This document shows, in pieces, positions 8,776 through 55,065 of a stretch of 64,000 bases of DNA (position 1 is its first letter; every line of letters begins with the position of its first letter). Made by a program: the position numbers and the translations under genes. The stretch comes from a bacterium (GTDB lineage: Bacteria > Desulfobacterota > Binatia > DP-6), in NCBI GenBank assembly GCA_026129405.1, contig JAHCID010000010.1:4122-68121 (forward strand), written 5' to 3'. Below the pieces are notes generated by a model that was not told where the DNA came from, searched no databases, and worked only from the letters and a program-made list of their open reading frames with translations.

Positions 8776-8837
8776 CGCGCGACCCTAGCGTCGCCGTCGC
8801 GCCAGCGGCAAGACCGGCCGGTCGCGCCGGCAGTGCC

Positions 8838-27626: not shown

Positions 27627-27804
27627 GGCGATCTAGTGTCCCGAGTCTGAAGTTCGTCACCAAATCTCGGGCGGTCTCACGCCGCCCGGCTGCGTTGCGT
27701 CTCCTCACCATGGCGACGGCCATGCCTCGTCGTCGCGCCTCGCCGGGCGGCGCGATCCCGCCCGATCTTTGGCAACGAACTTCGGACTCGGGACACTAGT
27801 CGCC
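27627..27804. repeat. 178-bp element bounded by 37/38-bp near-perfect terminal inverted repeats, with three internal hairpins
   Basis: IR-L ggcgatctagtgtcccgagtctgaagttcgtcaccaaa (27627-27664) vs reverse complement of IR-R (27768-27804) ggcga-ctagtgtcccgagtccgaagttcgttgccaaa: 34/38 identical. Internal cgggcgg-N7-ccgcccg hairpins at 27668-27688 and 27744-27764, and catggc-gacg-gccatg at 27709-27724. Confidence 0.75.
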
Positions 27805-28008
27805 GAGCGTCGACCAGTCGACGGTCCAGAAGTCGGGGACGGGGGGCCGGAGCTCGGTGTGACCGCCGAAGCAGGAGAAGCTCGGGCGGTGGGTGAGGCG
27901 TTCGCGGAGGAGGTGGAGGTGCTCCTCGACGCTCTGGCCGGGGGCGGGGGCGCCGACGTCGAGACGTTTCATGCCGCCGCATTTGCGGCAGGTGACGTCC
28001 ACGCGCAT
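27796..28008 (-). CDS. small Cys-containing hypothetical protein (70 aa; putative metal-binding)
   Basis: MRVDVTCRKCGGMKRLDVGAPAPGQSVEEHLHLLRERLTHRPSFSCFGGH... GC3 is about 93%. It starts 20 nt after the sat stop. Its stop codon lies inside IR-R of the inverted-repeat element. Confidence 0.35.
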   Translation of the reverse strand: MRVDVTCRKCGGMKRLDVGAPAPGQSVEEHLHLLRERLTHRPSFSCFGGHTELRPPVPDFWTVDWSTLGD

Positions 28009-28027: not shown

Positions 28028-29284
28028 CTACTGCTTCATCGCGGCGGCGAGGATGCGCGAGGTCGACGGACGCATGATGCGCGGGTCGACTTCCTTGCCT
28101 GCCTGGAGCGTCTGGCGGACGTCCTTGCCGGAGATCGAGACCGGCTTCTCGCCGGGGTGGTTGTCGGTGAGGTCGACGCGACCCATCGACTCGTAGAACG
28201 CCGCGAATCCGACCTTCAGCGGCTGGATCTTCAGGTCGCCGCCGAGCTTCGAGAAGATCTCCTGCGCGTCGAAGTCGCCCCAGATGGCGGAGCCGTCGGC
28301 GTAGGGCGCGTCGGCGTGCTTGCGGCCGATGACGATGTCGGTGAAGCCGAAGTTCTGGCGGTAGATGCCGTGCATCACGGCTTCCTTCGGGCCGCCGTAG
28401 AACATCTTGATGTCGAGCCCGAGCAGCAGGACGCGGTCCGGCACCGACTCGTTGCGTGGGCCCCACAGCGCGGCGTCGCTGTCGCCCTCGCCGAGGCCGC
28501 GCTGCGTGATCAGCGCTTCATAGGTCTGCATGCGCACGGCGGCGTTCACGTCGTCGCCCTTGGTCTCGCCGACGAGCGGGTTCAAGACGGCGCCGGCGTC
28601 GTGCCCCTGGCGGATCAGGGTCTCGAGGCCGTAGACGAGCGCGTACTCGTGCGCACGGTGGAGCGGGTTGCGCGTCTGGAACGCGACCACGCGCTTCCAG
28701 CCCTTCTCGCGGAACAGCGCGCGGACCTCACGCGGCGAGAGCACGTACTTGCCGAACGCCGGGTTCTTCGGCTGCGGCAGGACGCGGATCGTGCCGCCGA
28801 CGAGGTGCGTCTTGTCGGCGTCGTTCCTGAGCACCATGTCGGCGCCCGGATGATCGGTGCGCTCGGTGCCGTAGACATTCTTCAGGTAGCGGGGCTTGTC
28901 CCACGCGAACACCGACGTGACGTCGAGCGTTGCGACGAGCTCGCCCGCCGCATTGGTGAGCGCGACGGTCTGGCCGGGCTCGATCGTGCCGGCGAGCGCG
29001 CTGGTCACCGGCAGCGAGATCGGAATCGTCCAGGCGTACTTGGCGCCGTTCGACTCGATGCACGCCTCGTCGAGCACGCGGTCGTAGGTCGCCTGGTCCA
29101 TCGGGCCCCGCAGCGGGCTCAGGCCGCCGTCGCCGAAACGGTAGACGCTGGAGAGATCGGCGTCGGAGACGGGCACCTTCGGCAGGGACGCGGCCTTGTC
29201 GCGGAAGGCGGCCTGCTCGGCGGTCGGCACGGTGAGATCGAGCGGCTCGGTGAGTCCACCATGGGGCGGGATGAGATCGGGCAT
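28028..29284 (-). CDS. sat: sulfate adenylyltransferase (ATP sulfurylase)
   Basis: [11 protein letters not shown] and GRKHADAPY motifs, PUA-like N-terminal domain. Start at internal [10 protein letters not shown] with an AAAGGA RBS 8 nt upstream. Confidence 0.9.
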
Positions 29285-29345
29285 ACGGCTGTCCTTTCTT
29301 CCTGGTCTCGGTGTGTCGAAACCGTGCAGGCTAGGGGAATCGGGT

Positions 29346-29367
29346 GGCCGGCTCAAACGCGCCGGCC
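29346..29367 (-). terminator. GC-rich stem-loop abutting the stop of the 396-aa gene, about 60 nt upstream of sat
   Basis: ggccggc-tcaaacgc-gccggcc (7-bp stem, 8-nt loop) with no U-tract. Could be an attenuator or processing hairpin rather than a terminator. Confidence 0.3.
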
Positions 29368-29371
29368 GTGC

Positions 29372-30562
29372 TCAGAGGTGGGCCGAGTCGAACGACTCGC
29401 TGACGCTACGGACCCGGAGACGGCGGCGCAGGCGGGCGAGCCCGCGAGCGGCGAGGGCGCCCAGGCCCGAACGGGTGAACGACTGGACCGCCACCGAGAG
29501 CCGGGCGTCCTCGCCCGCGGCGAAGCGCGCCTCGAGCGGGGTCACGCCGAGCGTCAGGTCGCGCAGCCAGCTGGTCGGGATGCCGCGCTCGCGGACGCGC
29601 CGGAACAGGTGCTGGAGCACCGGCGTCAGCGCCTCCGGGTCGAGCCTGCGGGTGGCCGGCGTGCGGCGCACGACGATCACCGGCTGAACGTCCGCTTCGA
29701 CCAGGGTGTCGACGGCGGTCACGAGCGTCTGCGGGTCGTCGAGGCCCGCCACGAGCTCCGTCCAGACGGTGCCGCGCGGGAAGACGGTCGCGGCGTGGGC
29801 GAGGGCTTCGAGGTAGCGATCGCGGCCGATGTAGCGTGCCCGCCCGACGCAGTGTCGTCCCAGCTGCTCGGCGTCGAAGACCTCGAGGTTGTAGCTGATG
29901 GCGTCGACGCCCATGGCGTACGTGCGGTCGATCCAGCGCAGGTCGCGCGGCGGATGCGTCTGCACGACGACGAGCGTGTCGAAGTGCTTGCGCACCGCCT
30001 CGATGAGCGGGGTCAGATGGGCGATGCCGCCGTCGTCCGCATCGAAGACGCTCGAGTTGAACAGGACCAGCTCGGCGGCGCCCTCGTCGAACGCGGCGCG
30101 TACGACCTCGACGACGTCGGCGGGCGTGACGTCGCCGTGCGCAGTGCCGCGCGCGCCCTCGGTACAGAAGCGGCACGGCGCGCCGGCGGCGGAGAAGCCG
30201 CACGCACCGCCCGGGTGCACGACGAGATGCGTGCCGTGCACGGTCGCGAGACTTTGCATCGGGATGCCGCGGCCGGTCCGTTCGTTCGCGAAACGCGGCG
30301 TCCGCCCGGGGCGTACCTCGAGCCGAACGTCGGCCCGGCGCAGGTCGGAGAGGAAATAGCGGCCGGACTCGGCGGCGAGGCGATAGGGCGTTGCGCTGTC
30401 GGCACCGTCGAGCGGCGCGGCGACCTGCATGCCGTCGGGTAGCACGAGGTCGATGGTGTCGGGAGGTCGTCCCGCTGCCAGCACGCCGGCGCTGGAGTCG
30501 AGCTGGAGCCCGCCCGCGGCGACGCCGAGCTTCCAGCGCAGAGGGTCGGTCGCCGCGCTCAC
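29372..30562 (-). CDS. uncharacterised 396-aa protein with a Cx8Cx2C cluster and TIM-barrel-like periodicity (radical-SAM-like or COG1900/DUF39-like; unresolved)
   Basis: The last 396 codons of the 710-aa track ORF are protein-like. Cys cluster HPGGACGFSAAGAPCRFCTEG, followed by alternating beta/alpha segments (LVLFNSS, AISYNLEVFD, VWTELVAGLDD). The GTG start overlaps the upstream gene stop (GTGA). Confidence 0.6.
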   Translation of the reverse strand: MSAATDPLRWKLGVAAGGLQLDSSAGVLAAGRPPDTIDLVLPDGMQVAAPLDGADSATPYRLAAESGRYFLSDLRRADVRLEVRPGRTPRFANERTGRGIPMQSLATVHGTHLVVHPGGACGFSAAGAPCRFCTEGARGTAHGDVTPADVVEVVRAAFDEGAAELVLFNSSVFDADDGGIAHLTPLIEAVRKHFDTLVVVQTHPPRDLRWIDRTYAMGVDAISYNLEVFDAEQLGRHCVGRARYIGRDRYLEALAHAATVFPRGTVWTELVAGLDDPQTLVTAVDTLVEADVQPVIVVRRTPATRRLDPEALTPVLQHLFRRVRERGIPTSWLRDLTLGVTPLEARFAAGEDARLSVAVQSFTRSGLGALAARGLARLRRRLRVRSVSESFDSAHL

Positions 30563-31128
30563 GCGTCGGCTCCGCAGCGCCCGCAGACGCCGGTGGCCTC
30601 GAGCGGTCCGGCGAACGTGCCGGCGACGAGGTCGAGATGCTGTACCCGGCCCATGCCCGGCTCGAGCAGGAGGGCATAGAGGGCCTCGGCCGCGACGAGG
30701 GCCCCGAGGGCCATGGGGGCGACGTGGCGCAGCGCGCCGGTGGCGGTGGCGTCCGCCGACGGCGTCGTGGCGCCGCTCGGCGCCGGATCCCAGCAGTGGC
30801 CGCAAGGCCGCCCGACGAGCGTCGCGACCGCCCCCACGGTGCCGATGCCGTGTCCGCACACGAGCGGGACGCCGGTCATGAGCGCATGGTCGGCGAGGCG
30901 TGCGCGGGTCGTCGGGTCGTCCGAGACGTCGACCAGGACGGTCGCGTCGCCCGCGTCCTCGACCAGTATCGGCCCGGCGCGCTGCACGAGGATGCGTGCG
31001 AGCGCCGCGGCCGGGCCGTCGCCCGCCACGACGACGTGGGCGGCGTTGAGGAGATCCTGTCCCGTGCCGCCCACCTCGGGCAGCAGGATCTGACGGCTCC
31101 AGCGCTCGATCGCGGCGTCGTCCAGCAT
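30559..31128 (-). CDS. short degenerate E1-like (ThiF/MoeB N-terminal-like) protein with two CxxC pairs
   Basis: ThiF-like N-terminus (ERWSRQILLPEVGGTGQDLLNAAHVVVAG) with a degenerate Gly-loop (AGDGPAA), no DxxxxSNLxRQ-type ATP motif, and CGHC ... CGRC zinc-type cysteines. 189 aa versus about 250 aa for canonical ThiF. Confidence 0.6.
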   Translation of the reverse strand: MLDDAAIERWSRQILLPEVGGTGQDLLNAAHVVVAGDGPAAALARILVQRAGPILVEDAGDATVLVDVSDDPTTRARLADHALMTGVPLVCGHGIGTVGAVATLVGRPCGHCWDPAPSGATTPSADATATGALRHVAPMALGALVAAEALYALLLEPGMGRVQHLDLVAGTFAGPLEATGVCGRCGADA

Positions 31129-31413
31129 CTATTCGATCACGTTCTTCTCGATCGGCTCGACGGTCACGCCCTGCTCGCGCAGCCAGGCGATACCGCGCTC
31201 GATGGCGTCCTTGGCGCCGTCGAGCTCGATCGCGATGATGCCGATGTCCTCGTTGACGCTCGCCTGGCGGATGTTGAAGACCAGATCGAACTGGCGGCTC
31301 AGCTGGTAGATGAGCGGCTCCTTCACGAGACGGCTCGGGTAGGTGAGGTACAGCTTGGTTTTGTGCTGCGGACGGCTCGTGCCGCCGCGTGCGAGACGCG
31401 GGGATCGGCTCAT
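31129..31413 (-). CDS. NIL-domain protein (MetN C-terminal-like small ligand-binding domain)
   Basis: KLYLTYPSRLVKEPLIYQLSRQFDLVFNIRQASVNEDIGIIAIELDGAKDAIERGIAWLREQGVTVE fits the NIL-domain pattern. ATG overlaps the cysM-like stop (ATGA). Confidence 0.6.
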   Translation of the reverse strand: MSRSPRLARGGTSRPQHKTKLYLTYPSRLVKEPLIYQLSRQFDLVFNIRQASVNEDIGIIAIELDGAKDAIERGIAWLREQGVTVEPIEKNVIE

Positions 31414-32387
31414 CGCTTCTGCCACCCGAGCCAGAGGTTCGTGGAGAGATAGCGATCGCCGAAATCCGGGAACAGCACGACCACGGTGCCCTCCTCGAGG
31501 TCACGCGCCACCTGCAGCGCGGCGCAGTGGGCGGCGCCGCAGGACTGCCCCACGAGCAGACCTTCCTCGCGGCCCAGGCGGTAGACCATGTTGTAGGCGT
31601 CGTCGGTGGAGATGCCGAGCTTCCGGTCGAGCTCCTGCTCGTGGAAGATGCCCGGCACGATCGACGAGGCCATGTGCTTCAGGCCCTCGATGCCGTGGAA
31701 GGCGTCGTCGGGCTCGGCGGCGATCACCTCGATCGCGGGGTTCTGCTGCTTCAGATAGCGTCCGGTGCCCATGATCGTCCCGCCGGTGCCGATGCTGGCG
31801 ACGAAGTGGGTCACGGCGCCCGCGGTCTGTCGCCATATCTCCGGCCCGGTGCTCTCGACGTGCGCGCGGGGATTGGCCTCGTTGTTGTACTGATCCGGCT
31901 TGAAGTAGCGTTCGGGCGCCTCGGCGAGGCGCGTGCGGCAGAGACGGATGGCGCCGTCGGAGCCCTCGAGCGGGTCGGAGAAGACGATCGTCGCCCCGAA
32001 CGCGGTGATGACGTCCTTGCGCTCGCGGCTGACGTTTTCCGGCATCACGAGCTCGACGGGATAGCCGAGCGCCGCGCCGATCATCGCCAGCGCGATGCCG
32101 GTGTTGCCCGAGGTCGAGTCGAGGATGGTCTTGCCGGGGACCAGGCGGCCGGTCTCGATGCCGTCCTGGACCATGCGCAGCGCGGCGCGGTCCTTCACCG
32201 AGCCGCCCGGGTTGAAGCCCTCCAGCTTGGCGAAGATGCGCACCCCCGGCGGCACGCCGTCGCGCACGCGCCGCAGCTCGCACAGCGGCGTGTTGCCGAC
32301 GAGCGTCAGCACCGAGGGTGCGACGAGCGCTCCCTCGCGCGGCCCGAGCGGGCCGGCGAGGGCGGCATGGGCGACCGCGGGGTTCAT
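31410..32387 (-). CDS. cysM: PLP-dependent cysteine synthase (CysM/CysK family)
   Basis: PLP-lysine motif NPGGSVKDRAA, TSGNTGIALA, the GTGGT glycine loop, and 325 aa length. Confidence 0.88.
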   Translation of the reverse strand: MNPAVAHAALAGPLGPREGALVAPSVLTLVGNTPLCELRRVRDGVPPGVRIFAKLEGFNPGGSVKDRAALRMVQDGIETGRLVPGKTILDSTSGNTGIALAMIGAALGYPVELVMPENVSRERKDVITAFGATIVFSDPLEGSDGAIRLCRTRLAEAPERYFKPDQYNNEANPRAHVESTGPEIWRQTAGAVTHFVASIGTGGTIMGTGRYLKQQNPAIEVIAAEPDDAFHGIEGLKHMASSIVPGIFHEQELDRKLGISTDDAYNMVYRLGREEGLLVGQSCGAAHCAALQVARDLEEGTVVVLFPDFGDRYLSTNLWLGWQKR

Positions 32388-32400
32388 CGTGCGCGGACGC

Positions 32401-32676
32401 TCACCGTCCGCCGGCGATCGCCGGCACGATCGAGATCTCGTCGCCGGACTTCACCGGCGTCTCGAGGTTCTGAAGGAAGCGGATGTCCTCACCGTTGACG
32501 AAGATGTTGACGAAGCGGCGCACGGCCCCCTGCTCGTCGCAGATGCGATCGCGGATGCCCGGGTGACGGCTGTCGAGATCACGGATGAGCGCGGCCACGT
32601 CGGCTCCCTGGGCTTCCACGGCTTCGGCCCCGCCGGTGAACTTGCGCAGCGGCGTCGGCACTCGAACCTGGGTCAT
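32401..32676 (-). CDS. MoaD/ThiS-family sulfur-carrier protein, C-terminus ...AIAGGR
   Basis: 91-aa beta-grasp-like product ending in Gly-Gly plus one extra Arg (IVPAIAGGR-stop). Sits between the cysteine synthase and the ThrC-like gene. Confidence 0.7.
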   Translation of the reverse strand: MTQVRVPTPLRKFTGGAEAVEAQGADVAALIRDLDSRHPGIRDRICDEQGAVRRFVNIFVNGEDIRFLQNLETPVKSGDEISIVPAIAGGR

Positions 32677-32727: not shown

Positions 32728-33981
32728 TCAGACGGCCGTGGCCTCGCGGGTGCCGCGGAGCCTGGCATAGAGCTCGTCGAAGTCGGCGAGCCGGGCGGGA
32801 ATGCGGAACGGCTGCTCGACGTTGCCCGTGACCGCCTCGAGCGTCTTGTACCCGTTGCCGGTGATGCTGATGACGATCGACTCGTCGCGCGGGATGCGTC
32901 CCTGCTCGATGAGCTTCTTGGTGACGGCGACCGTGGTGCCGCCCGCGGGCTCGGTGAAGATGCCCTCGGTGCGGGCGAGGAGCTTGATGCCCTCGACGAT
33001 CTCCTCGTCGGTGACCGACTCGCCCCAGCCGCCGGACTCGCGCACGGCCTTCAGCACGTAGAAGCCGTCGGCCGGGTTGCCGATGGCGATCGACTTGGCG
33101 ATCGTCTGCGGCTTCACGGGCGCGATGAGATCCGTCTGGCGATGCAGGGCCTGCACGACCGGTGCGCAGCCGCCTGCCTGCGCCGAGTAGATCTTGAAGT
33201 CGCCCTCGACGAGGCCGAGGTCGCGGAGCTCCTTGAAGGCCTTCGCGACCTTCGGGAGGATCGTGCCGCCGGCCGTGGGGACGACGATGTGCTGCGGCAG
33301 CTTCCAGCCGAGCTGCTCGGCGACCTCGAAGCCGAACGTCTTGGCGCCCTCGGTATAGTAGGGCCGCACGTTGATGTTGACGAAGGCCCAGCCGTACTTG
33401 TCGGCGATCTCGCTGCACAGGCGGTTCACGTCGTCGTAGTTGCCGCGGATGGCGACGGCGCGCGGCCCGTAGATCGTCGAGCCGATGACCTTGCCCTGCT
33501 CGAGGTCGTCCGGGATGAAGATGTAGCAGTTGAGCCCCGCGCGGGCGGCGTGCGCCGACACCGAGTTGGCGAGGTTGCCGGTCGACGCACACGACACCGT
33601 GTCGAAGCCGAATTCGACGGCCTTCGAGATCGCCACCGAGACGACGCGATCCTTGTAGGAGAACGTCGGGTGGTTGACGGAGTCGTCCTTCACCCAGAGC
33701 TCCTGCACGCCCAGAACCTCGGCGAGGCGGTCGGCGCGCACGAGCGGCGTGTAGCCGGAGTGCATGCCGATGCGGGGCTCGCCCTCGACAGGGAGCAGCT
33801 CGCGGTAGCGCCAGAGGTTGCGCGGCCGGCTCTCGATCAGCTCGCGCGTCAGCACCTTGCCGATGGCCGCATAGTCGTAGACGACCTCCAGCGGCCCGAA
33901 GCAGGTTTCGCAGACGTGCAGCGGCGCGACCGGCGTTTCGGCGCCGCACTCGCGGCAGCGCAGTCCCGTCACGTAGCTCAT
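32728..33981 (-). CDS. threonine-synthase-like PLP enzyme with N-terminal Zn-ribbon (candidate sulfur-carrier-dependent homocysteine/cysteine synthase)
   Basis: N-terminal CxxC...CxxC (LRCRECGAETPVAPLHVCETCFGPLEV). ThrC-fold PLP-lysine motif (HPTFSYKDR). 417 aa. Confidence 0.85.
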   Translation of the reverse strand: MSYVTGLRCRECGAETPVAPLHVCETCFGPLEVVYDYAAIGKVLTRELIESRPRNLWRYRELLPVEGEPRIGMHSGYTPLVRADRLAEVLGVQELWVKDDSVNHPTFSYKDRVVSVAISKAVEFGFDTVSCASTGNLANSVSAHAARAGLNCYIFIPDDLEQGKVIGSTIYGPRAVAIRGNYDDVNRLCSEIADKYGWAFVNINVRPYYTEGAKTFGFEVAEQLGWKLPQHIVVPTAGGTILPKVAKAFKELRDLGLVEGDFKIYSAQAGGCAPVVQALHRQTDLIAPVKPQTIAKSIAIGNPADGFYVLKAVRESGGWGESVTDEEIVEGIKLLARTEGIFTEPAGGTTVAVTKKLIEQGRIPRDESIVISITGNGYKTLEAVTGNVEQPFRIPARLADFDELYARLRGTREATAV

Positions 33982-34706
33982 GGGTGATTACTCCTTTGCG
34001 CGGCCCGGACCTCGTGGCGGTCGCCGCAGGCGGCGCAGTTGGGATCGCGCGACAGCGGGACGCTGCGCCACGTCCCGGTCCGGGTGTCGATGGTGAGGAG
34101 CCGATCGCGGAACGCCGGCTCGAGATGGGCGAGGATGCGGACCGCCTCGCCGGCCTGGAGGGTCCCGGCCAGGACGACGGCAGGCCCGAGCACGCCGGCC
34201 TCCTGGCAGGACGGTACCTCGTCGGCGGGCGGGGCCTCCTCGAAGAGGCAGCGGTAGCAGGCGCTGCCGTGCGGCAGCACCGTCAGCAGCTGGGTGCGCC
34301 AGCCGAGCGCGCCGGCGTGTATGAGCGGCACCTCCGCCGCCACCGCTGCATCGTTGACCGTGAACTTGGCGGCGATCGTGTCGGTGCCGTCGAGGACGAC
34401 GTCCCAGCCGGCGAGCAGCGCCTCGTCGTCGGCGCCGAAGCGGCGGACCTCGGTTTCGATGGCGAGGGCAGGGTGCCGGTCGTGCAGCCGCGCGGCGGCT
34501 GCCAGCACCTTGGGACGCCCGACATCCGCCTCGTCGTAGAGCGGCTGGCGGTGCAGGTTCGAGATCTCGACGACGTCTGGGTCCATGAGACCGAGCGTGC
34601 CGACCCCCGCCGCCGCGAGGGCCATGGCCGCCGGGCTGCCGAGACCGCCGACGCCGATCACGAGGGCGCGGCCATGGTCGAGGCTGAAGGTGTCGGGATG
34701 GGGCAT
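33978..34706 (-). CDS. ThiF/MoeB/HesA-family E1-like adenylyltransferase
   Basis: GVGGLGSPAA Gly-loop, DPDVVEISNLHRQ ATP motif, CYRC ... CAAC zinc cysteines. 242 aa with no rhodanese domain. Its stop overlaps the ThrC-like start by 4 nt. Confidence 0.85.
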   Translation of the reverse strand: MPHPDTFSLDHGRALVIGVGGLGSPAAMALAAAGVGTLGLMDPDVVEISNLHRQPLYDEADVGRPKVLAAAARLHDRHPALAIETEVRRFGADDEALLAGWDVVLDGTDTIAAKFTVNDAAVAAEVPLIHAGALGWRTQLLTVLPHGSACYRCLFEEAPPADEVPSCQEAGVLGPAVVLAGTLQAGEAVRILAHLEPAFRDRLLTIDTRTGTWRSVPLSRDPNCAACGDRHEVRAAQRSNHP

Positions 34707-34940
34707 GCTGGCTCGTCAGACGTGTGACGGTCTCACCAGCATGCGAACATTTATCTTTCGCGGGGCCCGCGGGGGGCGCTCGCCGCGTCGGAATTAGCAC
34801 CGGTCGTTCGCCGGTTGCTGTGGCTTCGCTGGGCCGGTCCCTCCGCCACTCTGGATAAGATGTCGTGCGTCTGTCTCTCGGTCGCGAGGTAGCCCGATTC
34901 ACGCCGGCGTGTCAATGCGAAGTCGGGCCGAGGCGCGTGC

Positions 34941-40689: not shown

Positions 40690-42603
40690 CTACGCGTAGC
40701 TCCGCTGCGCCAGGTGGACGTTCTCGAAGGTGAGGGGCTCCTGGTGCAGGACCGGATCGGTGCCGGCGCCGCGGAATTCCCAGGCGGCGACGTAGCAGAA
40801 GTGCTCGTCGTCGCGCTTGGCCTCGCCGTCGGGCGTCTGGCTCTCCTCGCGGAAATGTCCGCCGCACGATTCGCTGCGATGGAGCGCGTCGAAGGTCATG
40901 ACCTCGGCGAACTCGAGGAAGTCGGCGACGCGCAACGCGAGCTCCAGCTGCTTGTTCAGGTTGTTGCGGTCGCCGGGCACGCGCACGTCCTGCCAGTACT
41001 CCTGCTGGAGCTGGCGCACGCGGGCGAGGGCGGTGCGCAGCCCCGCGTCGGTGCGCGACATGCCGACATAGTCCCACATGAGCTTGCCGAGCTCGCGGTG
41101 GAAGTCCTGTACGGTGCGGCTGCCGTTCACGGCGAGCACCGTCTCGATGCGCTGCTGCACGCTCGCCGCCGCCTCCGCGAACGCCGCATGGTCGGTCGCG
41201 ACCGCGGGCAGCTTGTTGCTCGCGATGTAGTTGGCGAGCGTGTACGGGATCACGAAGTAGCCGTCGGCGAGGCCCTGCATGAGAGCGCTCGCGCCGAGAC
41301 GGTTGGCGCCGTGGTCGGAGAAATTCGCCTCGCCCAGCACGAAGAGGCCGGGGACGTTGCTCATGAGCTCGTAGTCCACCCACAGGCCGCCCATCGTATA
41401 GTGGACGGCGGGGTAGATGCGCATCGGCACCTCGTACGGATTCTCGCCCGTGATGTGCCGATACATGTCGAACAGGTTGCCGTAGCGCTCGCGGATCGTC
41501 TTCTCGCCGAGCCGTTTGATGGCGTCGGCGAAATCCAGGTAGACGGCGAGCCCCGTCGCGCCGACGCCGCGGCCCTCGTCGCAGACCGCCTTCGCGGCGC
41601 GCGAGGCGACGTCGCGGGGAACGAGATTGCCGAAGCTCGGGTAGCGGCGCTCGAGGTAGTAGTCCCGCTCCGCCTCCGGGATCTGCTGCGGCGGGCGCTG
41701 GTCCCTGGCCTGCTTCGGGACCCACACGCGGCCGTCGTTGCGCAGGCTCTCGCTCATGAGGGTGAGCTTGGCCTGGTAGTCGCCGGTCACCGGGATGCAG
41801 GTCGGGTGGATCTGCGTGAAGCACGGGTTCGCGAAGTACGCGCCGCGGCGGGTGCAGCGCCAGTTGGCCGTGACGTTCGAGTTGCCGGCGTTCGTCGACA
41901 GGAAGAAGACGTTGCCGTAGCCGCCGGTGCAGAGGAGCACGGCGTCGGCCGACCACCGCTCCAGCTCGCCGGTGACGAGGTCGCGCGTGACGATGCCGCG
42001 GGCGCGGCCGTCGACGAGGACGAGATCGAGCATCTCGCGCCGCGCGAAGAGCTTCACCTGGCCGCGGTCGACCTGGCGCATCATCGCCTGGTAGGCGCCG
42101 AGGAGGAGCTGCTGGCCCGTCTGGCCGCGCGCGTAGAAGGTGCGCGACACCTGGGCGCCGCCGAAAGACCGGTTGTCGAGCAGCCCGCCGTATTCGCGCG
42201 CGAACGGGACGCCCTGGGCGACGCACTGGTCGATGATGTGGACGCTGATCTCGGCCAGGCGGTGGACGTTCGCCTCGCGGGCCCGGAAGTCGCCGCCCTT
42301 CACCGTGTCGTAGAAGAGGCGGTGCACCGAGTCGCCGTCGTTCTTGTAGTTCTTCGCGGCGTTGATGCCACCCTGGGCCGCGATCGAGTGCGACCGGCGC
42401 GGGCTGTCGAGGATGGTGAAGGCGAGGACGTTGTATCCGAGCTCGCCCAGCGACGCGGCCGCCGATGCGCCCGCGAGGCCGGTGCCGACGACGATGACGG
42501 TGTGCTTCCGGCGGTTGGCCGGGTTCACCAGCTTCATGTCGAACTTGTGCCGCTCCCACTTGCCCTCGAGCGGACCGGAGGGGACCCTGCCGTCCAGCGT
42601 CAC
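40690..42603 (-). CDS. sdhA: succinate dehydrogenase/fumarate reductase flavoprotein subunit
   Basis: FAD Rossmann [14 protein letters not shown], covalent-FAD His context ([14 protein letters not shown]), 637 aa. Confidence 0.95.
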
Positions 42604-43268
42604 AGCCGACCTCCGGTGAAGAACACGACGACGGGAACGAGCGTGAAGCCGCCGGCGATCGCGAGGGCGACGATCTGCCCCGTGCGCCGGATCGCGGGAC
42701 GATGCGCCACGCCGAGCGAGTCGAAGGCGCTGCCGAACCCGTGCCAGAGGTGGAAGCCGACGACGCCCATCGCCAGCACGTACCAGGCGACGAGCAACGG
42801 GTTCTGGAAATCCTCGATCACCAGGCGGTGGAGGTCACGGATGCCCGGCTCGCCCGGGGTCTCGTAGTGGGGGCCGAACTTGAACATCCGGATGTGCAGC
42901 GGCACGAAGACGAGCAGGACGAGCCCGGTGAGGATCATCGTCGTCGACGCGAGACTCTTGTGGCTCGTGTGTCCCGCGCGCTTCTTCATCTGGTAGGCGA
43001 CGGGGCGCGCCGCACGATTGCGCAGCCAGACGCGAATGCCGCTCACCAGATGGGCGACGAAGAGCGCCGCCAGGCCGGCCTCTGCCAGATAGATGAGCGG
43101 GTTGGAGGTGAGCGAGTGGCTGTAGGCGTTGTAGGCGCCGGGTCCGACGAAGACGAGCAGGTTCGCGCTCATGTGGGTCGCGAGGAACCCGATCAGGGCG
43201 AGCCCCGTGAGGCCCATCAGGACCTTCTGACCGATGGTACCGGTCAGGAATTTCAGCACCCGAGACAC
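42600..43268 (-). CDS. sdhC: succinate dehydrogenase cytochrome b subunit
   Basis: Five TM helices with conserved His residues. Overlaps the sdhA start by 4 nt. Operon order sdhC-A-B. Confidence 0.8.
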
Positions 43269-43401
43269 CCGTCTTGTCCTCCGCAGCGTGCGCTCTCATC
43301 TCCGGCGCGCCCGCCGCACGTGGCTACGATGCTAGGGCAGGGGACATGAATATCCAAAGCAAAACGCCGCCGCGCTCACATTAGCAACGCGAATACTGCG
43401 G
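43269..43401 (-). promoter_or_regulatory. putative sdhCAB promoter region
   Basis: 133-bp gap upstream of sdhC containing an AT-richer block (gggacatgaatatccaaagcaaaacg ... cacattagcaacgcgaatactgcgg) unusual for this genome. Confidence 0.3.
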
Positions 43402-43728
43402 TCAGCGCAGGATGCCGCGGGTCGCCACGTCGCCGACCGTGAAGGCGAAGAGCAGCAGGATCCATACGAACCCACAGAGGGCGAACATCTGCGTCAGCCG
43501 GCTGTTGAACCGGACGTGCATGAAGAACAGCACGACGAGCGTCGCCTTCAGCACGGCAATGCCGAGCATGACGACGTTGTTGAGCGCGCCGAGATCGACG
43601 TAGGCGACGGCGGTCGTGATCGCCGTCAGCACCATCAGGGAGACGAAGATCGCGAGATACATCCCGATCCCGACGACGTGCTCGGACGCGTGCTCGGCTT
43701 CGTGGGCGACGGACTTGGCGGAGCTCAT
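43402..43728 (-). CDS. cytochrome c oxidase subunit IV (bacterial CtaF/CoxD-like small membrane subunit)
   Basis: 108 aa with three TM helices, directly downstream of the subunit III gene. Confidence 0.7.
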   Translation of the reverse strand: MSSAKSVAHEAEHASEHVVGIGMYLAIFVSLMVLTAITTAVAYVDLGALNNVVMLGIAVLKATLVVLFFMHVRFNSRLTQMFALCGFVWILLLFAFTVGDVATRGILR

Positions 43729-43738
43729 GTGCGCAGCC

Positions 43739-44407
43739 TCAGTGACGACCGATGAGGTAGAGGAGGGGGAAGAGGAAGATCCAGACGATGTCGACGAAGT
43801 GCCAGTACAGGCCGCAGACCTCGACCGGGTTGTGGTAGGCCGGCCCGAAGCGGCCCTTCCACATCGCCCACATGAGCCAGGCCATGATGCCGACGCCGAT
43901 GATCATGTGCAGCGCGTGCAGACCGGTCATCGCGAAGTAGAGCGAGTAGAATATCTGCACGGCGTGCGCTTCGCCGGCGTCCGGCCAGTGGAAGTTCGGA
44001 CCCGGGATCAGGTGGTCCACCCACTTGTGGTAGTACTCGTAGACCTTCACGCCGAGGAACACGCTGCCGAGCACGACGGTCGCCATCACCCAGAAGATCT
44101 GGCGGAAGCGGTTGTGGCTCATCTGCGCCGCGTGGACGGCGAGCGCCATCGTGAGGCTCGAGCCGATCAGGACGGCGGTGTTGAAGGTGCCGAGCGTGAC
44201 GTCGAGGTGGTGCGACGCGTGCTGGAACGCGGTGGGGTGGAGGAAGCGGTAGACGATGTAGAGGCCGAACAGCCCGCCGAAGAACATCACCTCGTTGACG
44301 AGGAATGCCCACATCCCGACGGTGACGGACTCCTTCTGCTGCTCGGCGTCGTCGAACTGATGCGCGACGTTGACGTCGTGGTGCGCGTGTGCAGCGAGCT
44401 CAGCCAA
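43739..44407 (-). CDS. ctaE: cytochrome c oxidase subunit III
   Basis: Seven-helix subunit III pattern ([32 protein letters not shown]). Confidence 0.9.
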
Positions 44408-46067
44408 CGGCGGCCTCCTTCATGGACCCGTTCGCCGGAGCGGGCGGGAATTGCACCGACGTCTCGTAGTCGTAGGCCTCGGCGGTGACGATCGGCGTGC
44501 GGACGAAGTTCTCGGTGGGCGGCGGCGAGGCCGTCTCCCACTCGAGGCCCGCGGCGCCCCACGGATTCGCGATGGCGCGCTCTCCGAAGCGCAGCGACCA
44601 GGGCAGGTAGAGCATCGGCAGCAGGTACCCGATCCCGAGGATGGTCGCGCCGGCCGTCGACATCACGTTCAGCACCTGGAACTCGTCCGGATACACGTGG
44701 TAGCGCCGCGGCATGCCGAGGTAGCCCACGATGAACTGCGGGAAGAACGTGAGGTTGAACCCGAGGAACACGATCACGCCCGCGACCTTCGCCAGCGCCT
44801 CGGGGTACATCCGGCCGGTGATCTTCGGCCACCAGAAGTGGATGCCGCCGAGGTAGGCCATGATCGCACCGCCCACCATCACGTAGTGGAAGTGCGCGAC
44901 GACGAAGTACGTGTCGTGCACGTGCACGTCGAGGCCGAGCGTCGCGAGGAAGAGGCCGGTGAGGCCGCCGATCGTGAACAGGCCGATGAAGCCGAGCGCG
45001 TACAGCATCGGCGAGTCCCAAGAGACGGAACCCTTGTAGAGCGTGGCCGTCCAGTTGAAGACCTTCACCGCCGAGGGAATCGCGACGGCCATCGACAGGA
45101 AGGAGAACACCATGCCGACGTAGACCGACTGGCCGCTCGTGAACATGTGGTGGCCCCACACGACGAAGCCGAGCACGGCGATCATGAGGCTCGAGACCGC
45201 GATGAACGCGTAGCCGAACACGCGCTTGCGCGAGAAGGCCGTGACCAGCTCGCTGATCACGCCCATGCCCGGGAGGATCATGATGTAGACGGCGGGGTGC
45301 GAGTAGAACCAGAACAGGTGCTGGAACAGGATCGGGTCGCCGCCGAGCTTCGGATCGAAGAAGCCGAGGTGCAGCCCGCGCTCGACGGCCACGAGCAGGA
45401 TGGTGATCGCCAGCACCGGAGTGCCGAGGATCATGATCAGGCTCGTCGCATAGTGCGCCCACACGAAGAGGGGCAGGCGCATCCAGGTGAGGCCGGGCGC
45501 CCGCATCGTGTGGATCGTCACGATGAAGTTGAGGCCCGTGAGGATCGACGAGAAGCCGGTGATGAAGACGCCGAGCGCGGCCGGGATGACGTTGGTCGTC
45601 GAGGCCGAGGTGCTGAACGGCGTGTAGAAGGTCCAACCGGTGTCGAGGCCGCCCGTGATCATGGCGTACAGCGCGAAGCCGGCGCCGATCATGAAGATGT
45701 ACCAGCTGAGGAGGTTGATGCGCGGGAAGGCGAGGTCGCGCGCTCCGATCATCAGCGGGATCAGGAAGTTGCCGAGCACCGCCGGGATCGACGGGACCAG
45801 GAAGAAGAAGATCATCACCACGCCGTGCATGGTGAAGAGCTTGTTGTAGGTGTCGCTCTGGACGAGGTCGCCGCGCGGCGTGAGCAGCTCGAGCCGGATC
45901 AGACCGGCGAAGATGGCGCCGACCAGGAAGAAGATCGAGATCGAGACGAGGTAGAGGATCGCGATCCGCTTGTGGTCGACGGTGAGCAGCCACGAGCGGA
46001 CGGTGTAGTCCGCGTTGAGATAGGTCGTGGGCTCGTCCTTCGGCCGCGTGTCGATGGCGGTGTTCAT
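44400..46067 (-). CDS. ctaD: cytochrome c oxidase subunit I (heme-copper oxidase catalytic subunit)
   Basis: Canonical subunit I helices and ligands ([36 protein letters not shown]). Starts at [10 protein letters not shown]; overlaps the ctaC stop. Confidence 0.95.
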
Positions 46068-47044
46068 CAGTGGGCCTCCGCGCCTGAGTGCGCCTTCGCA
46101 CTCGACGGCGCCTCCGCGCCCGCGGGCGGCAGCGACTTCACGTATGCGATGAGCTGCATCACGCTCTCCTCGCTGAGCAGACCCTGGAAGGTCGGCATGA
46201 TCGGCTGATAGCCCTCGACGAGCTTCGCCTGCGGGTTGAGGATCGACTCGCGCAGGTAGTTGTCGTCGACGGTGACCGTGCGTCCGTCGGTCAGTTTCAC
46301 CGTCTTGCCGAAGATGCCGCCGAGCAGCGGGCCGCGGGCGCCCGGCCCCCCGAGGTGGCACGAGGCGCAGCCCTGCTGCTGGAAGAGCTGCGCGCCCGCC
46401 TCCGCGACGGAGACGCCCTTGTCGCCGGCCAGCCACGCCTGGAAGGCGGGCGGGTCCATCGCGATGATCTTGCCGATCATCCCGGAGTGCAGCGTGCCGC
46501 AGTACTCGGCGCAGAACAGGTGATACTCGCCGGGCTGCGTCGCCTCGAACCAGGTGAGGGTGTAGCGACCCGGCACGGCGTCCATCTTGGTGCGGAACGC
46601 CGGCACGTAGAAGCTGTGGATCACGTCCTCGGACGCCAGCGTCACCTGCACGGGCTTGCCGACCGGGATGTGGAGCTCGTTGATCTCCCGCCGGCCCTCC
46701 ATGTGCTGGACCTTCCACATCCACTGCTTGCCGACGACGTTCACGTACAGCGCGTCGTCGGGCGGCCGGCGGATGTTGGCGTACAGCACGGCGCCCCAGC
46801 CGAAGATGCCGATCGAGATGATGAAGGGGATGATCGACCAGGCGAACTCGAGCAGGTTCGAGCCGTGGATGCCGTGCGGCCGCTCGTCGTGGCTGCGCCG
46901 CTTGAAGCGGATCATGAACGCGACGATCGTCGCCGCGATCGCCACGGTGAAGAAGACCGTCAGGGCGACGAGGAAGAAGAAGAGGTAGTCGACCTGCGGC
47001 GCCAGGGTCGACGCCTGCACGGGGAACAACCGGAAGTCATTCAT
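46067..47044 (-). CDS. ctaC: cytochrome c oxidase subunit II with C-terminal cytochrome c domain (caa3-type)
   Basis: CuA site ([17 protein letters not shown] ... [12 protein letters not shown]) plus a C-terminal heme c motif CASCH. Confidence 0.9.
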
Positions 47045-47931
47045 GACGAGCGGACCTCCCGGTCCGGCTGAGCGCGGCGCTCGCGACGGATCATGACGAA
47101 GAGGAAGCTGCCGATCGCGAGCAGCGTCAGGACCCCGCCGGCGCGCACGGCGCTCATCGCCACCTTGCTGTAGCGCCCGGTCGCGGGGTCGTAGTGGAAG
47201 CAGAAGAGGAGCAGCTGATCGACGAACGTGCCGATGCGCTCCTCGGAAGCCTCGACGAGCGCCAGGCGCACGTCACGGGGCGCGAACTCGACCCCGTAGA
47301 AGTAGTGCGACAGCCGACCCTCCGGGGTGACGACGACGATGCCGCTCGCATGCGCGAACTGCCTGCTCGCCTCGTCCCACGCGTAGCGGAAGCCGATGGC
47401 CTCGGTCACCGTGCGGATGCTCTCCGCGTCGCCGGTGAGGAAGCGCCAGCCCTTCGCCCCGTTCGGCCGCCGGTAGTTCTCGAGGTAAGTCGCCTGCTTC
47501 TTCTTGGCCAGCTCGGCGCCCTCGTTCGGGTCGAAGCTGAACGTGACCGTCGTGTAGGTGTCGCCGGCGTCGAAGGGCAGGGCGCGCATCATGCGCACGA
47601 CGCCGTTGAGGACGATGGTGCACAGCATCGGGCACTCGTAGTACGCCGGCACCAGCAGCATCGGCTTACCGCCGGACGCCTCGCGCAGCGTGATCGGCTT
47701 GCCGTCCTCGTCGCGGAAGACCGCGTCGAGGTCGAGCGTGGTGCCGAGCTTCTGATCGAAGGTGACGTCGCGGAGGATCTCCGGCCGGCCGTCGGAGGCC
47801 TTCGGGCCGCCGACGGCCCCGGGTGCGGCACCGCCCGCGCCGGGCGTACCGTCCTTGAAGGCGCCGGCCGGGCGCCCGCCCGCCAGCGTGCACGCCAGGG
47901 CGGCGGCGAGGACCAAGGGGGCGCGTCTCAC
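47041..47931 (-). CDS. SCO1/SenC-family copper chaperone (thioredoxin-like)
   Basis: CxxxC copper motif in YYECPMLCT plus a conserved downstream His. C-terminal TM anchor. Overlaps the ctaC start (ATGA). Confidence 0.85.
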   Translation of the reverse strand: MRRAPLVLAAALACTLAGGRPAGAFKDGTPGAGGAAPGAVGGPKASDGRPEILRDVTFDQKLGTTLDLDAVFRDEDGKPITLREASGGKPMLLVPAYYECPMLCTIVLNGVVRMMRALPFDAGDTYTTVTFSFDPNEGAELAKKKQATYLENYRRPNGAKGWRFLTGDAESIRTVTEAIGFRYAWDEASRQFAHASGIVVVTPEGRLSHYFYGVEFAPRDVRLALVEASEERIGTFVDQLLLFCFHYDPATGRYSKVAMSAVRAGGVLTLLAIGSFLFVMIRRERRAQPDREVRSS

Positions 47932-48320
47932 CGCGCGGCTCCTCCGCGGCGTGCGACGAGCAGCTCCATGGCGCGGTCGATCGGGATGCGCACGACGCCC
48001 GCCTGCCGGTCGACCCAGCCGTAGCCCGCAAGCTGCGCGACCTCGCGCGCCCGCAGGGCAGCGAGATCGCCGATGGGATCGATCTGGAGGCGGGGCTCCG
48101 GCGGTTCGCGCCGCGCGTAGGACTGGGCGAGCGGGCTCGCGGGCGGGCTCATGACGTCCTCGCGCCAGACGAGCAGCTTCAGCATGCCCCACATGAGCGC
48201 GAACGAGACCACCACGAGGACGACGACGCCGGCCGCCGCGCCGTAGACGGAGCCGAAGCGGACGTCGCGCAGCTCGTGGCCGAGCGAGGGATCGGTTTGG
48301 GGGTCGACGGGATGCTGCAT
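47928..48320 (-). CDS. hypothetical single-TM membrane protein embedded in the ACIII-caa3 cluster
   Basis: 130 aa, one TM helice (VVVLVVVSFALMWGML). Translationally coupled to sco1 (overlap) and 4 nt from the actF stop. Confidence 0.45.
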   Translation of the reverse strand: MQHPVDPQTDPSLGHELRDVRFGSVYGAAAGVVVLVVVSFALMWGMLKLLVWREDVMSPPASPLAQSYARREPPEPRLQIDPIGDLAALRAREVAQLAGYGWVDRQAGVVRIPIDRAMELLVARRGGAAR

Positions 48321-48323
48321 CGT

Positions 48324-49505
48324 CTACTCCAGCACCGGCACCGACGGGTCCCGCAGCGGCAGCAGCGGGCGCCCCTCGAGCTGGCGCACGAAGAACCATA
48401 TCCACAGGCCGCCGACGCCGAGGAGCGAGGCGACGTCGATCATGCGGATCGAGAAGCCCTCGGGACGGAAGACCGGCTGCACGAGGAAGAACACGTCGCA
48501 CATGCGCACGACGATGAGCGCCACCGCGACCGCCGCGAGCTTCGCGGCGCTGCGCTTCAACGACCGCGACAGCAGCAGCGCGAAGGGCAGGGCGAAGTGG
48601 AAGATCACGATGAAGATCGCGAAGTACTGCCAGCCGTTCGACGTTCGCTTCAGGTACCAGGGAATCTCCTCGGGGAGGTTGCCCGACCAGATGATGAGGA
48701 ACTGCGAGAAGCTGAAGTAGGCCCACAGCATCACGAAGGCGAGCATCAGCTTGCCGAGGTCGGCGACCTGATCGACCTTGATGATGCCGCGCACCGGCGG
48801 ATTGTTCGCGAGCAGCGCCGCCATCGGGATCATGAGCGCGAAGGCCGAGAGCCCGCAGCCGCCGATGAAGAGGATGCCGTAGATGGTCGAGAACCAGTGC
48901 GGCTCGAGCGACATCAGCCAGTCGATGCCGGCGAAGCTCATGGTCAGCACCATGAGGACGAGGCCGCCGCGCGACAGCAGCTCCAGGCGCGCGCCCGGCT
49001 TCGGATCCGTGGTGGTGTCCTGGAGCAGCGACCAGCGGGTGAGGGCCCGCACCATCAGTATCCAGGCGAGGAAGTAGACGACCGCGCGTCCGAGGAAGAA
49101 GGGGACGTTCAGGTAGAGCGCCTTGTGCTGGAGCACCGGGTCGTGCGCGACGTGCTCCGGCTGCGCCCACTCGTAGATCCGGGGCAGGCCGAGCGCGATC
49201 GGGACGAAGAGGAGCGCCATCAGCGGCAGGGTGCGGGCGCCGGACTCGAGGAGTCGCCGGATCGCCATGCCCCACGCGCCGCCCGTCACGTGATGGATCA
49301 TGAGCACGCCGAGGCAGCCGAGGGCGAGGCCCGTCCAGAAGACGTAGGCGACGAGGTAGGAGCGCAGGAGGGGCGTCGGGTCGTTCGCGGCGATGCCGAG
49401 CGCGGCGCAGACCACGATCGCGATGCCGCCGACGCCAAGGGCGCCCCGCTGCAGACGGTACAGGGGATGGTCGGCCGGAAGGGTGAGCTGGGGCACCGGG
49501 CGCAT
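48324..49505 (-). CDS. actF: alternative complex III subunit ActF (polytopic membrane subunit)
   Basis: Multi-TM protein following actE in the act operon. Start set at MRPVPQLTL within the longer track ORF. Confidence 0.7.
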   Translation of the reverse strand: MRPVPQLTLPADHPLYRLQRGALGVGGIAIVVCAALGIAANDPTPLLRSYLVAYVFWTGLALGCLGVLMIHHVTGGAWGMAIRRLLESGARTLPLMALLFVPIALGLPRIYEWAQPEHVAHDPVLQHKALYLNVPFFLGRAVVYFLAWILMVRALTRWSLLQDTTTDPKPGARLELLSRGGLVLMVLTMSFAGIDWLMSLEPHWFSTIYGILFIGGCGLSAFALMIPMAALLANNPPVRGIIKVDQVADLGKLMLAFVMLWAYFSFSQFLIIWSGNLPEEIPWYLKRTSNGWQYFAIFIVIFHFALPFALLLSRSLKRSAAKLAAVAVALIVVRMCDVFFLVQPVFRPEGFSIRMIDVASLLGVGGLWIWFFVRQLEGRPLLPLRDPSVPVLE

Positions 49506-50086
49506 CAGTGGGCCTCCGCGTCCAGCTTGGTCCGCTCGGCGGCGGGGACGTCGGCCAGGGTCGCCGTCTGGCTCAGCTGAAGCGCTCGGATGTACGTCGT
49601 GATCGCCCAGCGGTCGGCGATGGGGATCTGCTGGGCGTAGTTCGGCATGATGCCGAAGCCGTTGGTGATGACGTCGAAGTAGTAGCCGTCGGGCTCGTTG
49701 CGCAGCCGCTCGACGTGGAACGACGGCGGACGCTTGTAGCCGCGCAGCACGATCATGCCGCCGCCGGCGCCGGTGCGGTCGTGGCAGGGCGAGCAGTAGA
49801 TGTCGTAGCGCTGGTGGCCGCGGGCGACGAGGTCGGTGGTGACGGGCACCGGCGCCTCGCGCACGAAGTCGCCGCCGGCGTCCTTGCCGGAACTCCACGG
49901 CGTCGGCGTGATGATGCTGTTGCGCGCCACCGTCCCGTCGATGAGCGGCCGCGACGAATCGCCGTTCGCGAACAGGCCGCTCGGCTGGAGCGGCAGGTAC
50001 TTCGGCTGATTCTGCATGTCCGAGCGGCAGGCCACGCCGAAGGGCAGGCACAGCGCCAGGAGGGCGAGCAGGGGACGGCGGGCCAT
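49505..50086 (-). CDS. actE: alternative complex III monoheme cytochrome c subunit ActE
   Basis: Signal/lipobox (LALCLPFGVACRSD) and a single CSPCH heme-binding motif. Confidence 0.8.
   Translation of the reverse strand: MARRPLLALLALCLPFGVACRSDMQNQPKYLPLQPSGLFANGDSSRPLIDGTVARNSIITPTPWSSGKDAGGDFVREAPVPVTTDLVARGHQRYDIYCSPCHDRTGAGGGMIVLRGYKRPPSFHVERLRNEPDGYYFDVITNGFGIMPNYAQQIPIADRWAITTYIRALQLSQTATLADVPAAERTKLDAEAH

Positions 50087-50618: not shown

Positions 50619-50622
<4 letters not shown>
50086..50622 (-). CDS. actD: alternative complex III membrane subunit ActD (DUF3341)
   Basis: 178 aa, two TM helices, in operon position between actC and actE. Confidence 0.75.
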
Positions 50623-55048
<4,426 letters not shown>

Positions 55049-55065
55049 GTCGTCTCCTCGCGGGG

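Follow-up and report, generated by a model that had tools for sequence, protein, structure and literature searches.

A degenerate short E1-like protein and a stand-alone NIL domain protein in a riboswitch-associated sulfur amino-acid operon of Binatia: a possible inactive partner for a truncated E1

Why should an operon that encodes an active E1 also keep a second, shorter E1-like protein from which the ATP-binding residues have been deleted? The question is raised by a 64,000-nucleotide stretch of a Binatia genome (GenBank assembly GCA_026129405.1, contig JAHCID010000010.1, positions 4,122 to 68,121; this whole stretch is referred to as the window, and all coordinates count from its first letter), in which a 189-aa short E1-like protein (sE1) and a 94-aa stand-alone NIL domain protein are encoded side by side on the minus strand. 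An earlier interpretation, made from the letters of this DNA alone and referred to here as the sequence-only reading, had regarded the two genes as an insertion. The new observation is that the two E1-like proteins of these operons show complementary losses: the N-terminal helix that carries the arginine finger is lost by the operon E1s and kept by the sE1s, which themselves lack the ATP site. This split points to the operon E1 as a candidate partner of sE1, and the proposal is weighed below against other possible roles.

Complementary losses in two E1-like proteins

Judged by sequence profiles and by its predicted fold, sE1 belongs to the ThiF/MoeB superfamily. The Pfam ThiF profile (PF00899) scored 37 bits against a cut-off of 28.1 and aligned residues 60-156 of sE1 with profile positions 109-205, and the NCBIfam MoeB models aligned residues 2-42 with model positions 5-45; because these matches leave a gap between the two matched blocks, approximately 65 profile positions are missing from sE1. 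The AlphaFold2 (AF2) model of sE1 was confident (predicted local distance difference test (pLDDT) 88, predicted template modelling score (pTM) 0.83), and residues 1-20 formed the only low-confidence part of the monomer (block means 71 and 54). The best Foldseek matches of this model were ThiF, MoeB, and Uba4 (E 1e-9 to 1e-7, TMq 0.66-0.74), and the non-catalytic E1-like domains of APPBP1, SAE1, and LynD/TruD were also among its structural matches. A total of 220 homologues were found, mostly of 160-210 aa. The NCBIfam equivalog scores of sE1 were only 20-49 bits against cut-offs of 266-647 (for example, 49 against 449). An origin of sE1 by local duplication of the operon E1 was considered and found to be unsupported; the best scores of the sE1 profile were obtained with canonical full-length MoeBs.

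Catalytic residues were mapped by aligning sE1 and the operon E1 to MoeB and ThiF of E. coli MG1655. In this alignment sE1 has no counterpart of MoeB residues 60-111, a segment that includes D62, S69, N70, R73, Q74, and K86. Its Gly-loop reads GDGPAA (G36-D-G38-P39-A-A41) in place of the GLGGLG of MoeB and departs from the GxGGxG pattern, with only the first Gly being conserved across the sE1 family, and the crossover-loop Cys187 of MoeB is absent. The equivalent of Asp130 is D70 in the sE1 of the window and is either not conserved or deleted in its relatives. The Cys4 metal site composed of two CxxC pairs is retained (C109, C112, C182, and C185, invariant in 41 sequences). Because the ATP-site residues are deleted and the Gly-loop is degraded, sE1, as judged from the alignment, cannot adenylate and should not be annotated as an adenylyltransferase. 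The sequence-only reading had described a ThiF-like N-terminus with two CxxC pairs, a degraded Gly-loop (AGDGPAA), and the absence of the ATP-binding signature DxxxxSNLxRQ, and had suggested on these grounds that sE1 is non-catalytic; the alignment bears out all of these points, and the two findings that this reading had named as capable of overturning it did not materialize, since the ATP-binding residues are not retained and the open reading frame (ORF) is conserved in relatives. Compared with MoeB and ThiF of E. coli (PDB 1JW9 and 1ZUD), sE1 shares the fold (Foldseek TM ~0.7), the RxxRQ helix, the Cys4 zinc site, and a place in an operon with a ThiS/MoaD-like carrier, and differs in having no 60-111 segment, no functional Gly-loop, no crossover-loop Cys, and, in most members, no Asp130.

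In contrast to sE1, the operon E1 (242 aa) keeps all of the ATP-binding residues mapped on MoeB as well as the crossover-loop Cys. It is composed of the ThiF domain only, with no C-terminal rhodanese domain, and its alignment begins at residue 29 of ThiF and residue 29 of MoeB, with no RxxRQ helix. Among the 15 distinct operon E1s that are intact, the first residue of the Gly-loop always lies at position 20-33 (38 in MoeB) and RxxRQ is absent from the longest possible ORF; the motif is also missing from the in-frame upstream peptide in all 15. The gene at 33978-34706 had been described as a full-length E1, which holds for the catalytic signature and fails for the length, because the N-terminal arginine-finger helix is absent. 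A start-codon artefact was considered as the cause of this truncation and was rejected: the E1 cannot extend upstream, because its ORF uses the first start after a stop and the riboswitch described below occupies the upstream DNA, and the 15 orthologues agree. Helix-less E1s of this kind appear to constitute a widespread, little-discussed E1 variant.

The helix missing from the operon E1s is the best-conserved part of sE1. All 18 distinct sE1s carry the motif ER[WY][SAG]RQI[LIV]L within the start pattern M-L-x-D-x-x-[IV]-[ED]-R-[WYF]-[SAG]-R-Q-I-[LIV]-L-P-[ED]-V-G, in which the helix residues of the window protein are R9, R12, and Q13. Across 41 aligned sE1 sequences, which share 48% identity on average, the invariant positions are grouped in the N-terminal helix (S11, R12, Q13, I14, P17, V19, G20, G23, Q24, and L27) and at the four zinc-site Cys residues. 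R12 of sE1 aligns with Arg14 of MoeB and Arg11 of ThiF. The combination of an E1 fold, a deleted nucleotide site, and an invariant trans arginine finger at R12 gives sE1 the sequence features of an inactive adenylation domain (IAD).

A conserved operon under S-adenosylmethionine control

The genes are tightly packed on the minus strand in an array that spans 34861 to ~27796, in a window with a GC content of ~70%. The array is composed of the following features, in order of transcription.

34748-34861, minus strand: S-adenosylmethionine (SAM)-I riboswitch aptamer (RF00162, 72.5 bits against a gathering score of 44.4, E 7e-16), 41 nt before the E1 start codon
33978-34706, minus strand: active E1 of the MoeB/ThiF type, 242 aa (Pfam and NCBIfam profiles, residue map)
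32728-33981, minus strand: ThrC-like pyridoxal phosphate (PLP) enzyme, 417 aa, with an N-terminal Cys4 ribbon (CxxC...CxxC) (profile matches)
32401-32676, minus strand: ThiS/MoaD/SAMP1-like sulfur carrier, 91 aa, with C-terminus GG plus R (profile matches)
31410-32387, minus strand: CysM-type cysteine synthase, 325 aa (profile matches)
31129-31413, minus strand: stand-alone NIL domain protein, 94 aa from ATG (Pfam NIL)
30559-31128, minus strand: sE1, short E1-like protein with a degenerate ThiF/MoeB fold, 189 aa (Pfam ThiF, NCBIfam MoeB, AF2)
29372-30562, minus strand: variant radical-SAM-like protein, 396 aa (NF045502, PF04055)
28028-29356, minus strand: Sat, sulfate adenylyltransferase, with its true start probably near 29284
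27796-28008, minus strand: conserved Cys-containing 70-aa ORF, which follows Sat in relatives

Read directly from the sequence, the gene junctions comprise an ATGA overlap between CysM and NIL, a TAG-ATG abutment between NIL and sE1, and a GTGA overlap between sE1 and the radical-SAM-like gene. An alternative start of the NIL gene, GTG at 31425, would give a protein of 98 aa. No sigma-70-like promoter was predicted inside the array, and the single terminator-like match lay on the plus strand and did not exceed the level of shuffled sequences. The SAM-I riboswitch was found directly upstream of the E1 gene in 11 of 11 related loci tested (66-90 bits). On the evidence of these matches the riboswitch controls the operon, and such control fits a methionine pathway.

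The order of SAM-I riboswitch, E1, ThrC-like enzyme, ThiS-like carrier, CysM, NIL, sE1, and variant radical-SAM-like protein is fixed in ~25 loci, and the same order was seen wherever a homologue of sE1, NIL, or the radical-SAM-like protein could be inspected. In the relatives, genes for a Na+/sulfate symporter and Sat and the 70-aa ORF usually come next after the radical-SAM-like gene. The NIL, sE1, and radical-SAM-like genes strictly co-occur, being present together in every Binatia-type operon with enough sequence. Since the gene order is the same in all inspected loci and the riboswitch is present in all 11 relatives, NIL, sE1, and the radical-SAM-like gene all belong, as fixed components, to a SAM-regulated operon for sulfur amino acids, and the description of the two genes as inserted between cysM and the Cys-cluster protein has to be abandoned. 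The named records are labeled as Candidatus Binatia, "delta proteobacterium", or "Thermodesulfobacteriota" metagenome-assembled genomes, and the wider synteny, which includes BamD, an extracytoplasmic function (ECF) sigma factor, and PolA, indicates a single lineage. No natural fusions of sE1 with NIL, E1, or the radical-SAM-like protein were seen among the best 120 matches of each search. A single-protein metagenome scan starting from a truncated non-Binatia E1 again gave mostly Binatia operons, and in addition one non-Binatia cluster (L167/L169) that served as a control (L169, positions 5443-8998 of metagenome contig Ga0316189_10000076, GC 0.67). It encodes an Rrf2 regulator, a CysK-like protein, an N-terminally short E1, ThiS, and CysM; genes for NIL, sE1, and a radical-SAM protein are missing from its surroundings.

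Both small genes are real and under purifying selection. Their GC contents at third codon positions (GC3), 0.92 for sE1 and 0.91 for NIL, are like those of the neighboring genes. Ratios of nonsynonymous to synonymous substitution rates (dN/dS) were calculated against a reference relative with ~86% identity (L095) and were 0.026 for NIL, 0.14 for sE1, 0.14 for CysM, 0.23 for the radical-SAM-like protein, and 0.25 for E1; purifying selection was observed in all three parts of sE1 (omega 0.11, 0.19, and 0.11). That sE1 is a functionless decaying remnant or a mis-called frame is scarcely credible. By bit score per residue it does evolve fastest in the operon, and its middle region is variable in length; however, its dN/dS equals that of CysM, its GC3 is that of a coding sequence in this neighborhood, 22 columns are invariant over the 41 sE1 sequences, its start/stop coupling is kept in ~25 loci, and its AF2 fold is confident. 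The pseudogene interpretation was rejected on the grounds of GC3, dN/dS, and the invariant columns.

The 70-aa ORF at 27796-28008 (minus strand) possesses a CxxC motif and further Cys residues, has no Pfam match, and shows a dN/dS of 0.21. In the window, as in most relatives whose Sat gene was captured, it lies directly after Sat; in L015 one gene separates the two.

The NIL protein, the radical-SAM-like protein, and the sulfur carrier

The Pfam NIL profile (PF09383) matched the 94-aa protein with 64 bits against a cut-off of 24 and was its only domain, in agreement with the previous description of a NIL domain without an attached ferredoxin or transporter; the protein is fused to neither an ATP-binding cassette (ABC) ATPase nor a 4Fe-4S ferredoxin. 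It aligns to the C2 domain of the MetN structures 3DHX and 3DHW (E 1e-3). Of 414 homologues, the best 120 are all 86-137 aa long and possess PF09383 only. Behind a variable basic N-terminal tail, the core has 39 invariant columns and an invariant C-terminal VEPIEKNVIE. The Asn of the NIL motif, N47, is invariant and aligns with N295 of MetN, whose replacement by Ala abolishes L-methionine binding (PMC6233128). Since N47 is invariant and corresponds to MetN N295, a methionine-type ligand sensor or an adaptor is a plausible role for the NIL protein. NIL/ferredoxin proteins and DUF39 are required for homocysteine synthesis in methanogens and Desulfovibrio, where their molecular role is unknown (PMC5764234); the operon studied here contains no DUF39 gene, COG2122 gene, or ferredoxin domain. 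The window protein shares with the C2 domain of MetN and with the NIL/ferredoxin proteins MA1822 and DvMF_0262 a true NIL domain, the conserved Asn, and an association with sulfur amino-acid synthesis, whereas it is unfused, is not accompanied by DUF39 or COG2122, and is far more conserved than its neighbors.

The 396-aa product of the gene after sE1 passed the "variant_rSAM" model NF045502 (137 against 125 bits) and PF04055 (32.6 against 29.5) and resembled TIGR04043 (the MSMEG_0568 family) at 109 bits, below the cut-off of 303.7. It had previously been called simply a Cys-cluster protein: the Cys motif is real, while its identity as a member of the variant radical-SAM family NF045502 with a CX8CX2C motif had been missed. 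The motif is formed by C121-X8-C130-X2-C133, which deviates from the canonical CX3CX2C, and is accompanied by an invariant C238 and a beta-rich N-terminal domain of ~100 aa. In the AF2 model (pLDDT 87), the nearest structures were lipoyl synthases, followed by ThiH, RlmN, and BioB; this likeness to lipoyl synthase reflects, on the modeled fold, a generic similarity of the radical-SAM core (TM ~0.42, 16-23% identity). A sequence search of the PDB with the protein found nothing. The protein is distinguished from canonical radical-SAM enzymes by its CX8CX2C motif, and from TIGR04043 by its score; no function is known for NF045502 or TIGR04043.

In all carriers of Binatia (L001-L029, L099-L163, and the window), GG is followed by a single variable last residue (R, C, H, N, or A); in the control without the NIL-sE1-radical-SAM trio (L167/L169), the carrier stops exactly at GG. 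The extra residue after GG implies C-terminal processing of the carrier. The ORFs of the 64-kb window contained no JAMM/Mec motif (HxH...SxxD), and neither an adenosine 5'-phosphosulfate (APS) reductase/CysH nor a sulfite reductase/Sir gene was found in the window or downstream of the operon in relatives; these searches covered the window and the operon surroundings, and the usual genes for CysH, Sir, Mec, or IscS may be located in other parts of the genome.

In M. tuberculosis, the CysO thiocarboxylate serves cysteine synthesis by CysM in the CysO-CysM-Mec-MoeZ system. A MetM-MetO-Mec-MoeZ homocysteine pathway of Streptomyces albulus has been described by Hasebe et al. 2024, as cited in a GapMind 2026 preprint. 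The ThrC-like enzyme of the present operon passes the NCBIfam threonine-synthase models. However, its gene is flanked by those of E1 and the carrier in a SAM-riboswitch operon, and the protein has the N-terminal Cys4 ribbon; by analogy with MetM, it is probably a homocysteine synthase dependent on the carrier thiocarboxylate and liable to mis-annotation as ThrC. The operon shares with the CysO and MetM pathways a ThiS-like carrier, CysM, a ThrC-like enzyme, and an E1. In contrast to those pathways, its E1 lacks both a rhodanese domain and the N-terminal helix, the window yielded no Mec/JAMM gene, both PLP enzymes apparently share a single carrier, and NIL, sE1, and the radical-SAM-like protein are additional components.

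Possible roles of sE1 and its neighbors

ThiF and MoeB act as dimers in which the N-terminal helix of each subunit reaches the ATP site of the other. Eukaryotic E1s pair an inactive with an active adenylation domain (APPBP1-UBA3 and SAE1-SAE2), and E1 asymmetry with an arginine-donating inactive domain is usually seen as a eukaryotic elaboration of the symmetric MoeB/ThiF homodimers. Arg11 of ThiF is supplied by the neighboring subunit, Arg14 of MoeB is the corresponding arginine finger, and in the yeast Tcd1-Tcd2 heterodimer the sole contribution of one subunit is an arginine, Arg59 of Tcd1, that completes the ATP site of its partner (PMC13139853). Based on the residue map, we tentatively favor, at somewhat less than an even chance, a role of sE1 as a non-catalytic partner subunit of the active E1 of the operon, similar to an inactive adenylation domain. 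In a dead paralogue there is otherwise little to keep an ATP-site arginine invariant, and thus sE1 may still visit an ATP site; the operon E1 is the candidate partner because the only ATP site encoded nearby lacks an arginine finger of its own. The conservation of the helix in sE1 and its loss from E1 point to an E1 partner and not only to the adaptor or scaffold for the carrier that the sequence-only reading had conjectured, and the low AF2 confidence at residues 1-20 of sE1 fits a helix that needs a partner.

In the proposed mechanism, the functions would be split between a complete ATP/Mg/carrier-activating site in E1 and the helix, zinc site, and C-terminal helix/strand subdomain contributed by sE1. 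The two proteins would form an asymmetric dimer in which Arg12 of sE1 completes, in trans, the single active site, and this dimer would activate the ThiS-like carrier by adenylation. The carrier thiocarboxylate could then feed CysM for cysteine and the ThrC-like, MetM-type enzyme for homocysteine, with the whole operon being switched by SAM. The NIL protein may be a sensing subunit for a small, methionine-type ligand or an adaptor subunit bound to the E1:sE1 assembly, and sE1 may also dock the radical-SAM-like iron-sulfur (Fe-S) protein. What the data show directly is the sequence anatomy, fold, conservation, selection, synteny, and riboswitch. The heterodimer is an attractive inference and not a necessity, and the trans-complementation, the ligand of NIL, and a connection to the radical-SAM-like protein are likewise inferred. 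Like APPBP1 (NEDD8 E1), SAE1 (SUMO E1), and Tcd1, sE1 has an E1 fold without an ATP site, and arginine donation is the proposal made for it. Compared with these proteins, however, it is much smaller, has no catalytic-cysteine or ubiquitin-fold domain (UFD) insertions, is placed in sulfur-carrier (thiocarboxylate) metabolism instead of conjugation, and would act in a heterodimer that is so far a proposal.

Several observations weigh against a partnership of sE1 with the operon E1. The arginine finger is reported to be non-essential in MoeB and ThiF (PMC13139853). Approximately one-third of the 150 nearest E1 cluster representatives (50% identity) also lack the N-terminal helix, and since the helix-less E1 of the L169 control occurs where sE1, NIL, and radical-SAM genes are all missing from the vicinity, a truncated E1 does not by itself require a partner. 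Furthermore, the sE1 gene adjoins or overlaps the NIL and radical-SAM-like genes and not the E1 gene, and the C-terminal subdomain of sE1 could equally bind the carrier or another protein.

In another explanation, sE1 is not an E1 partner and would scaffold a separate NIL-sE1-radical-SAM module, its retained C-terminal subdomain of the carrier-binding type docking the carrier or the NIL protein onto the Fe-S protein. Such a module would deliver sulfur or electrons for the thiocarboxylate in place of a MoeZ/Uba4-type rhodanese, or would process the carrier. Translational coupling and constant co-occurrence link the three genes, a rhodanese domain is missing from the operon E1, and the radical-SAM-like protein combines a three-Cys motif and a fourth invariant Cys with sulfur-inserting lipoyl synthases as its nearest structures. 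In DUF39-dependent homocysteine synthesis, NIL domains are partnered with a ferredoxin and a sulfurtransferase (PMC5764234). Genes for a sulfate symporter and Sat lie next to the trio, whereas CysH, Sir, and JAMM genes were not found in the vicinity, and the Binatia carriers have one residue after GG that the carrier of the trio-less control lacks. However, the scaffold leaves unexplained why the arginine-finger helix is the best-conserved part of sE1 and why it was lost from E1, the similarity to LipA is generic, the sulfur-donor chemistry is putative, and CysH, Sir, Mec, and IscS may be encoded elsewhere. We regard the scaffold as the main rival of the heterodimer and as somewhat less likely. 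The two are not mutually exclusive, since other proteins could readily dock on a dead E1 subunit. A role of NIL and sE1 that is purely regulatory appears improbable. Here the NIL protein would sense methionine (or homocysteine or SAM) and sE1 would titrate the carrier or poison E1 dimers, adding post-translational feedback on top of the riboswitch. The NIL (C2) domain of MetN is the sensor for methionine trans-inhibition and its key Asn is invariant here, the operon is SAM-regulated, and sE1 retains dimer-type and carrier-type surfaces without catalytic residues; on the other hand, the constraint on NIL (39 invariant columns, dN/dS 0.026) exceeds what a simple ligand sensor needs, an inhibitor has no need of an invariant arginine finger, and the co-inherited radical-SAM-like gene is left without an explanation.

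A more far-reaching combination of these ideas, to which we assign a low probability, is that NIL, sE1, and the CX8CX2C radical-SAM-like protein form an undescribed Fe-S machine, docked via the dead E1 subunit on the rhodanese-less E1, that loads sulfur or reducing equivalents onto the adenylated carrier. If so, it would constitute a new protein thiocarboxylate route for cysteine and methionine in aerobic Binatia, with a eukaryote-like asymmetry of active and inactive E1. For the favored partnership of sE1 with E1, the searchable literature yielded no account of a bacterial E1 for sulfur carriers that has its inactive partner as a separate protein, which is absence of evidence only. Should that partnership be real, the complementary loss in two genes would provide an independent and experimentally simple model for the evolution of E1 asymmetry. 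The operon is also a riboswitch-defined candidate for the missing steps of thiocarboxylate-based cysteine and methionine synthesis, namely the sulfur donor, carrier processing, and feedback control, in a lineage that represents a widespread uncultured group of soils and sediments.

The remainder of the window contains aerobic respiration genes at 40690-55719 (minus strand), which encode the flavoprotein and cytochrome b subunits of a succinate dehydrogenase/fumarate reductase, subunits II, III, and IV of an aa3-type cytochrome c oxidase, and an alternative complex III (ActD, a 1012-aa Fe-S subunit, and a multihaem cytochrome). Because the window encodes the aa3-type oxidase, alternative complex III, and succinate dehydrogenase, the host is probably aerobic. 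Three adjacent ORFs at 5152-5988, 6121-8775, and 8838-9155 (all minus strand; 278, 884, and 105 aa) have a strong coding signal, with GC3 values of 0.90-0.95, and no Pfam match at E <= 1e-5. A 631-aa sulfatase-family protein, encoded at 1622-3517 (plus strand) beside a GAF-histidine kinase, may represent a further sulfur-acquisition gene.

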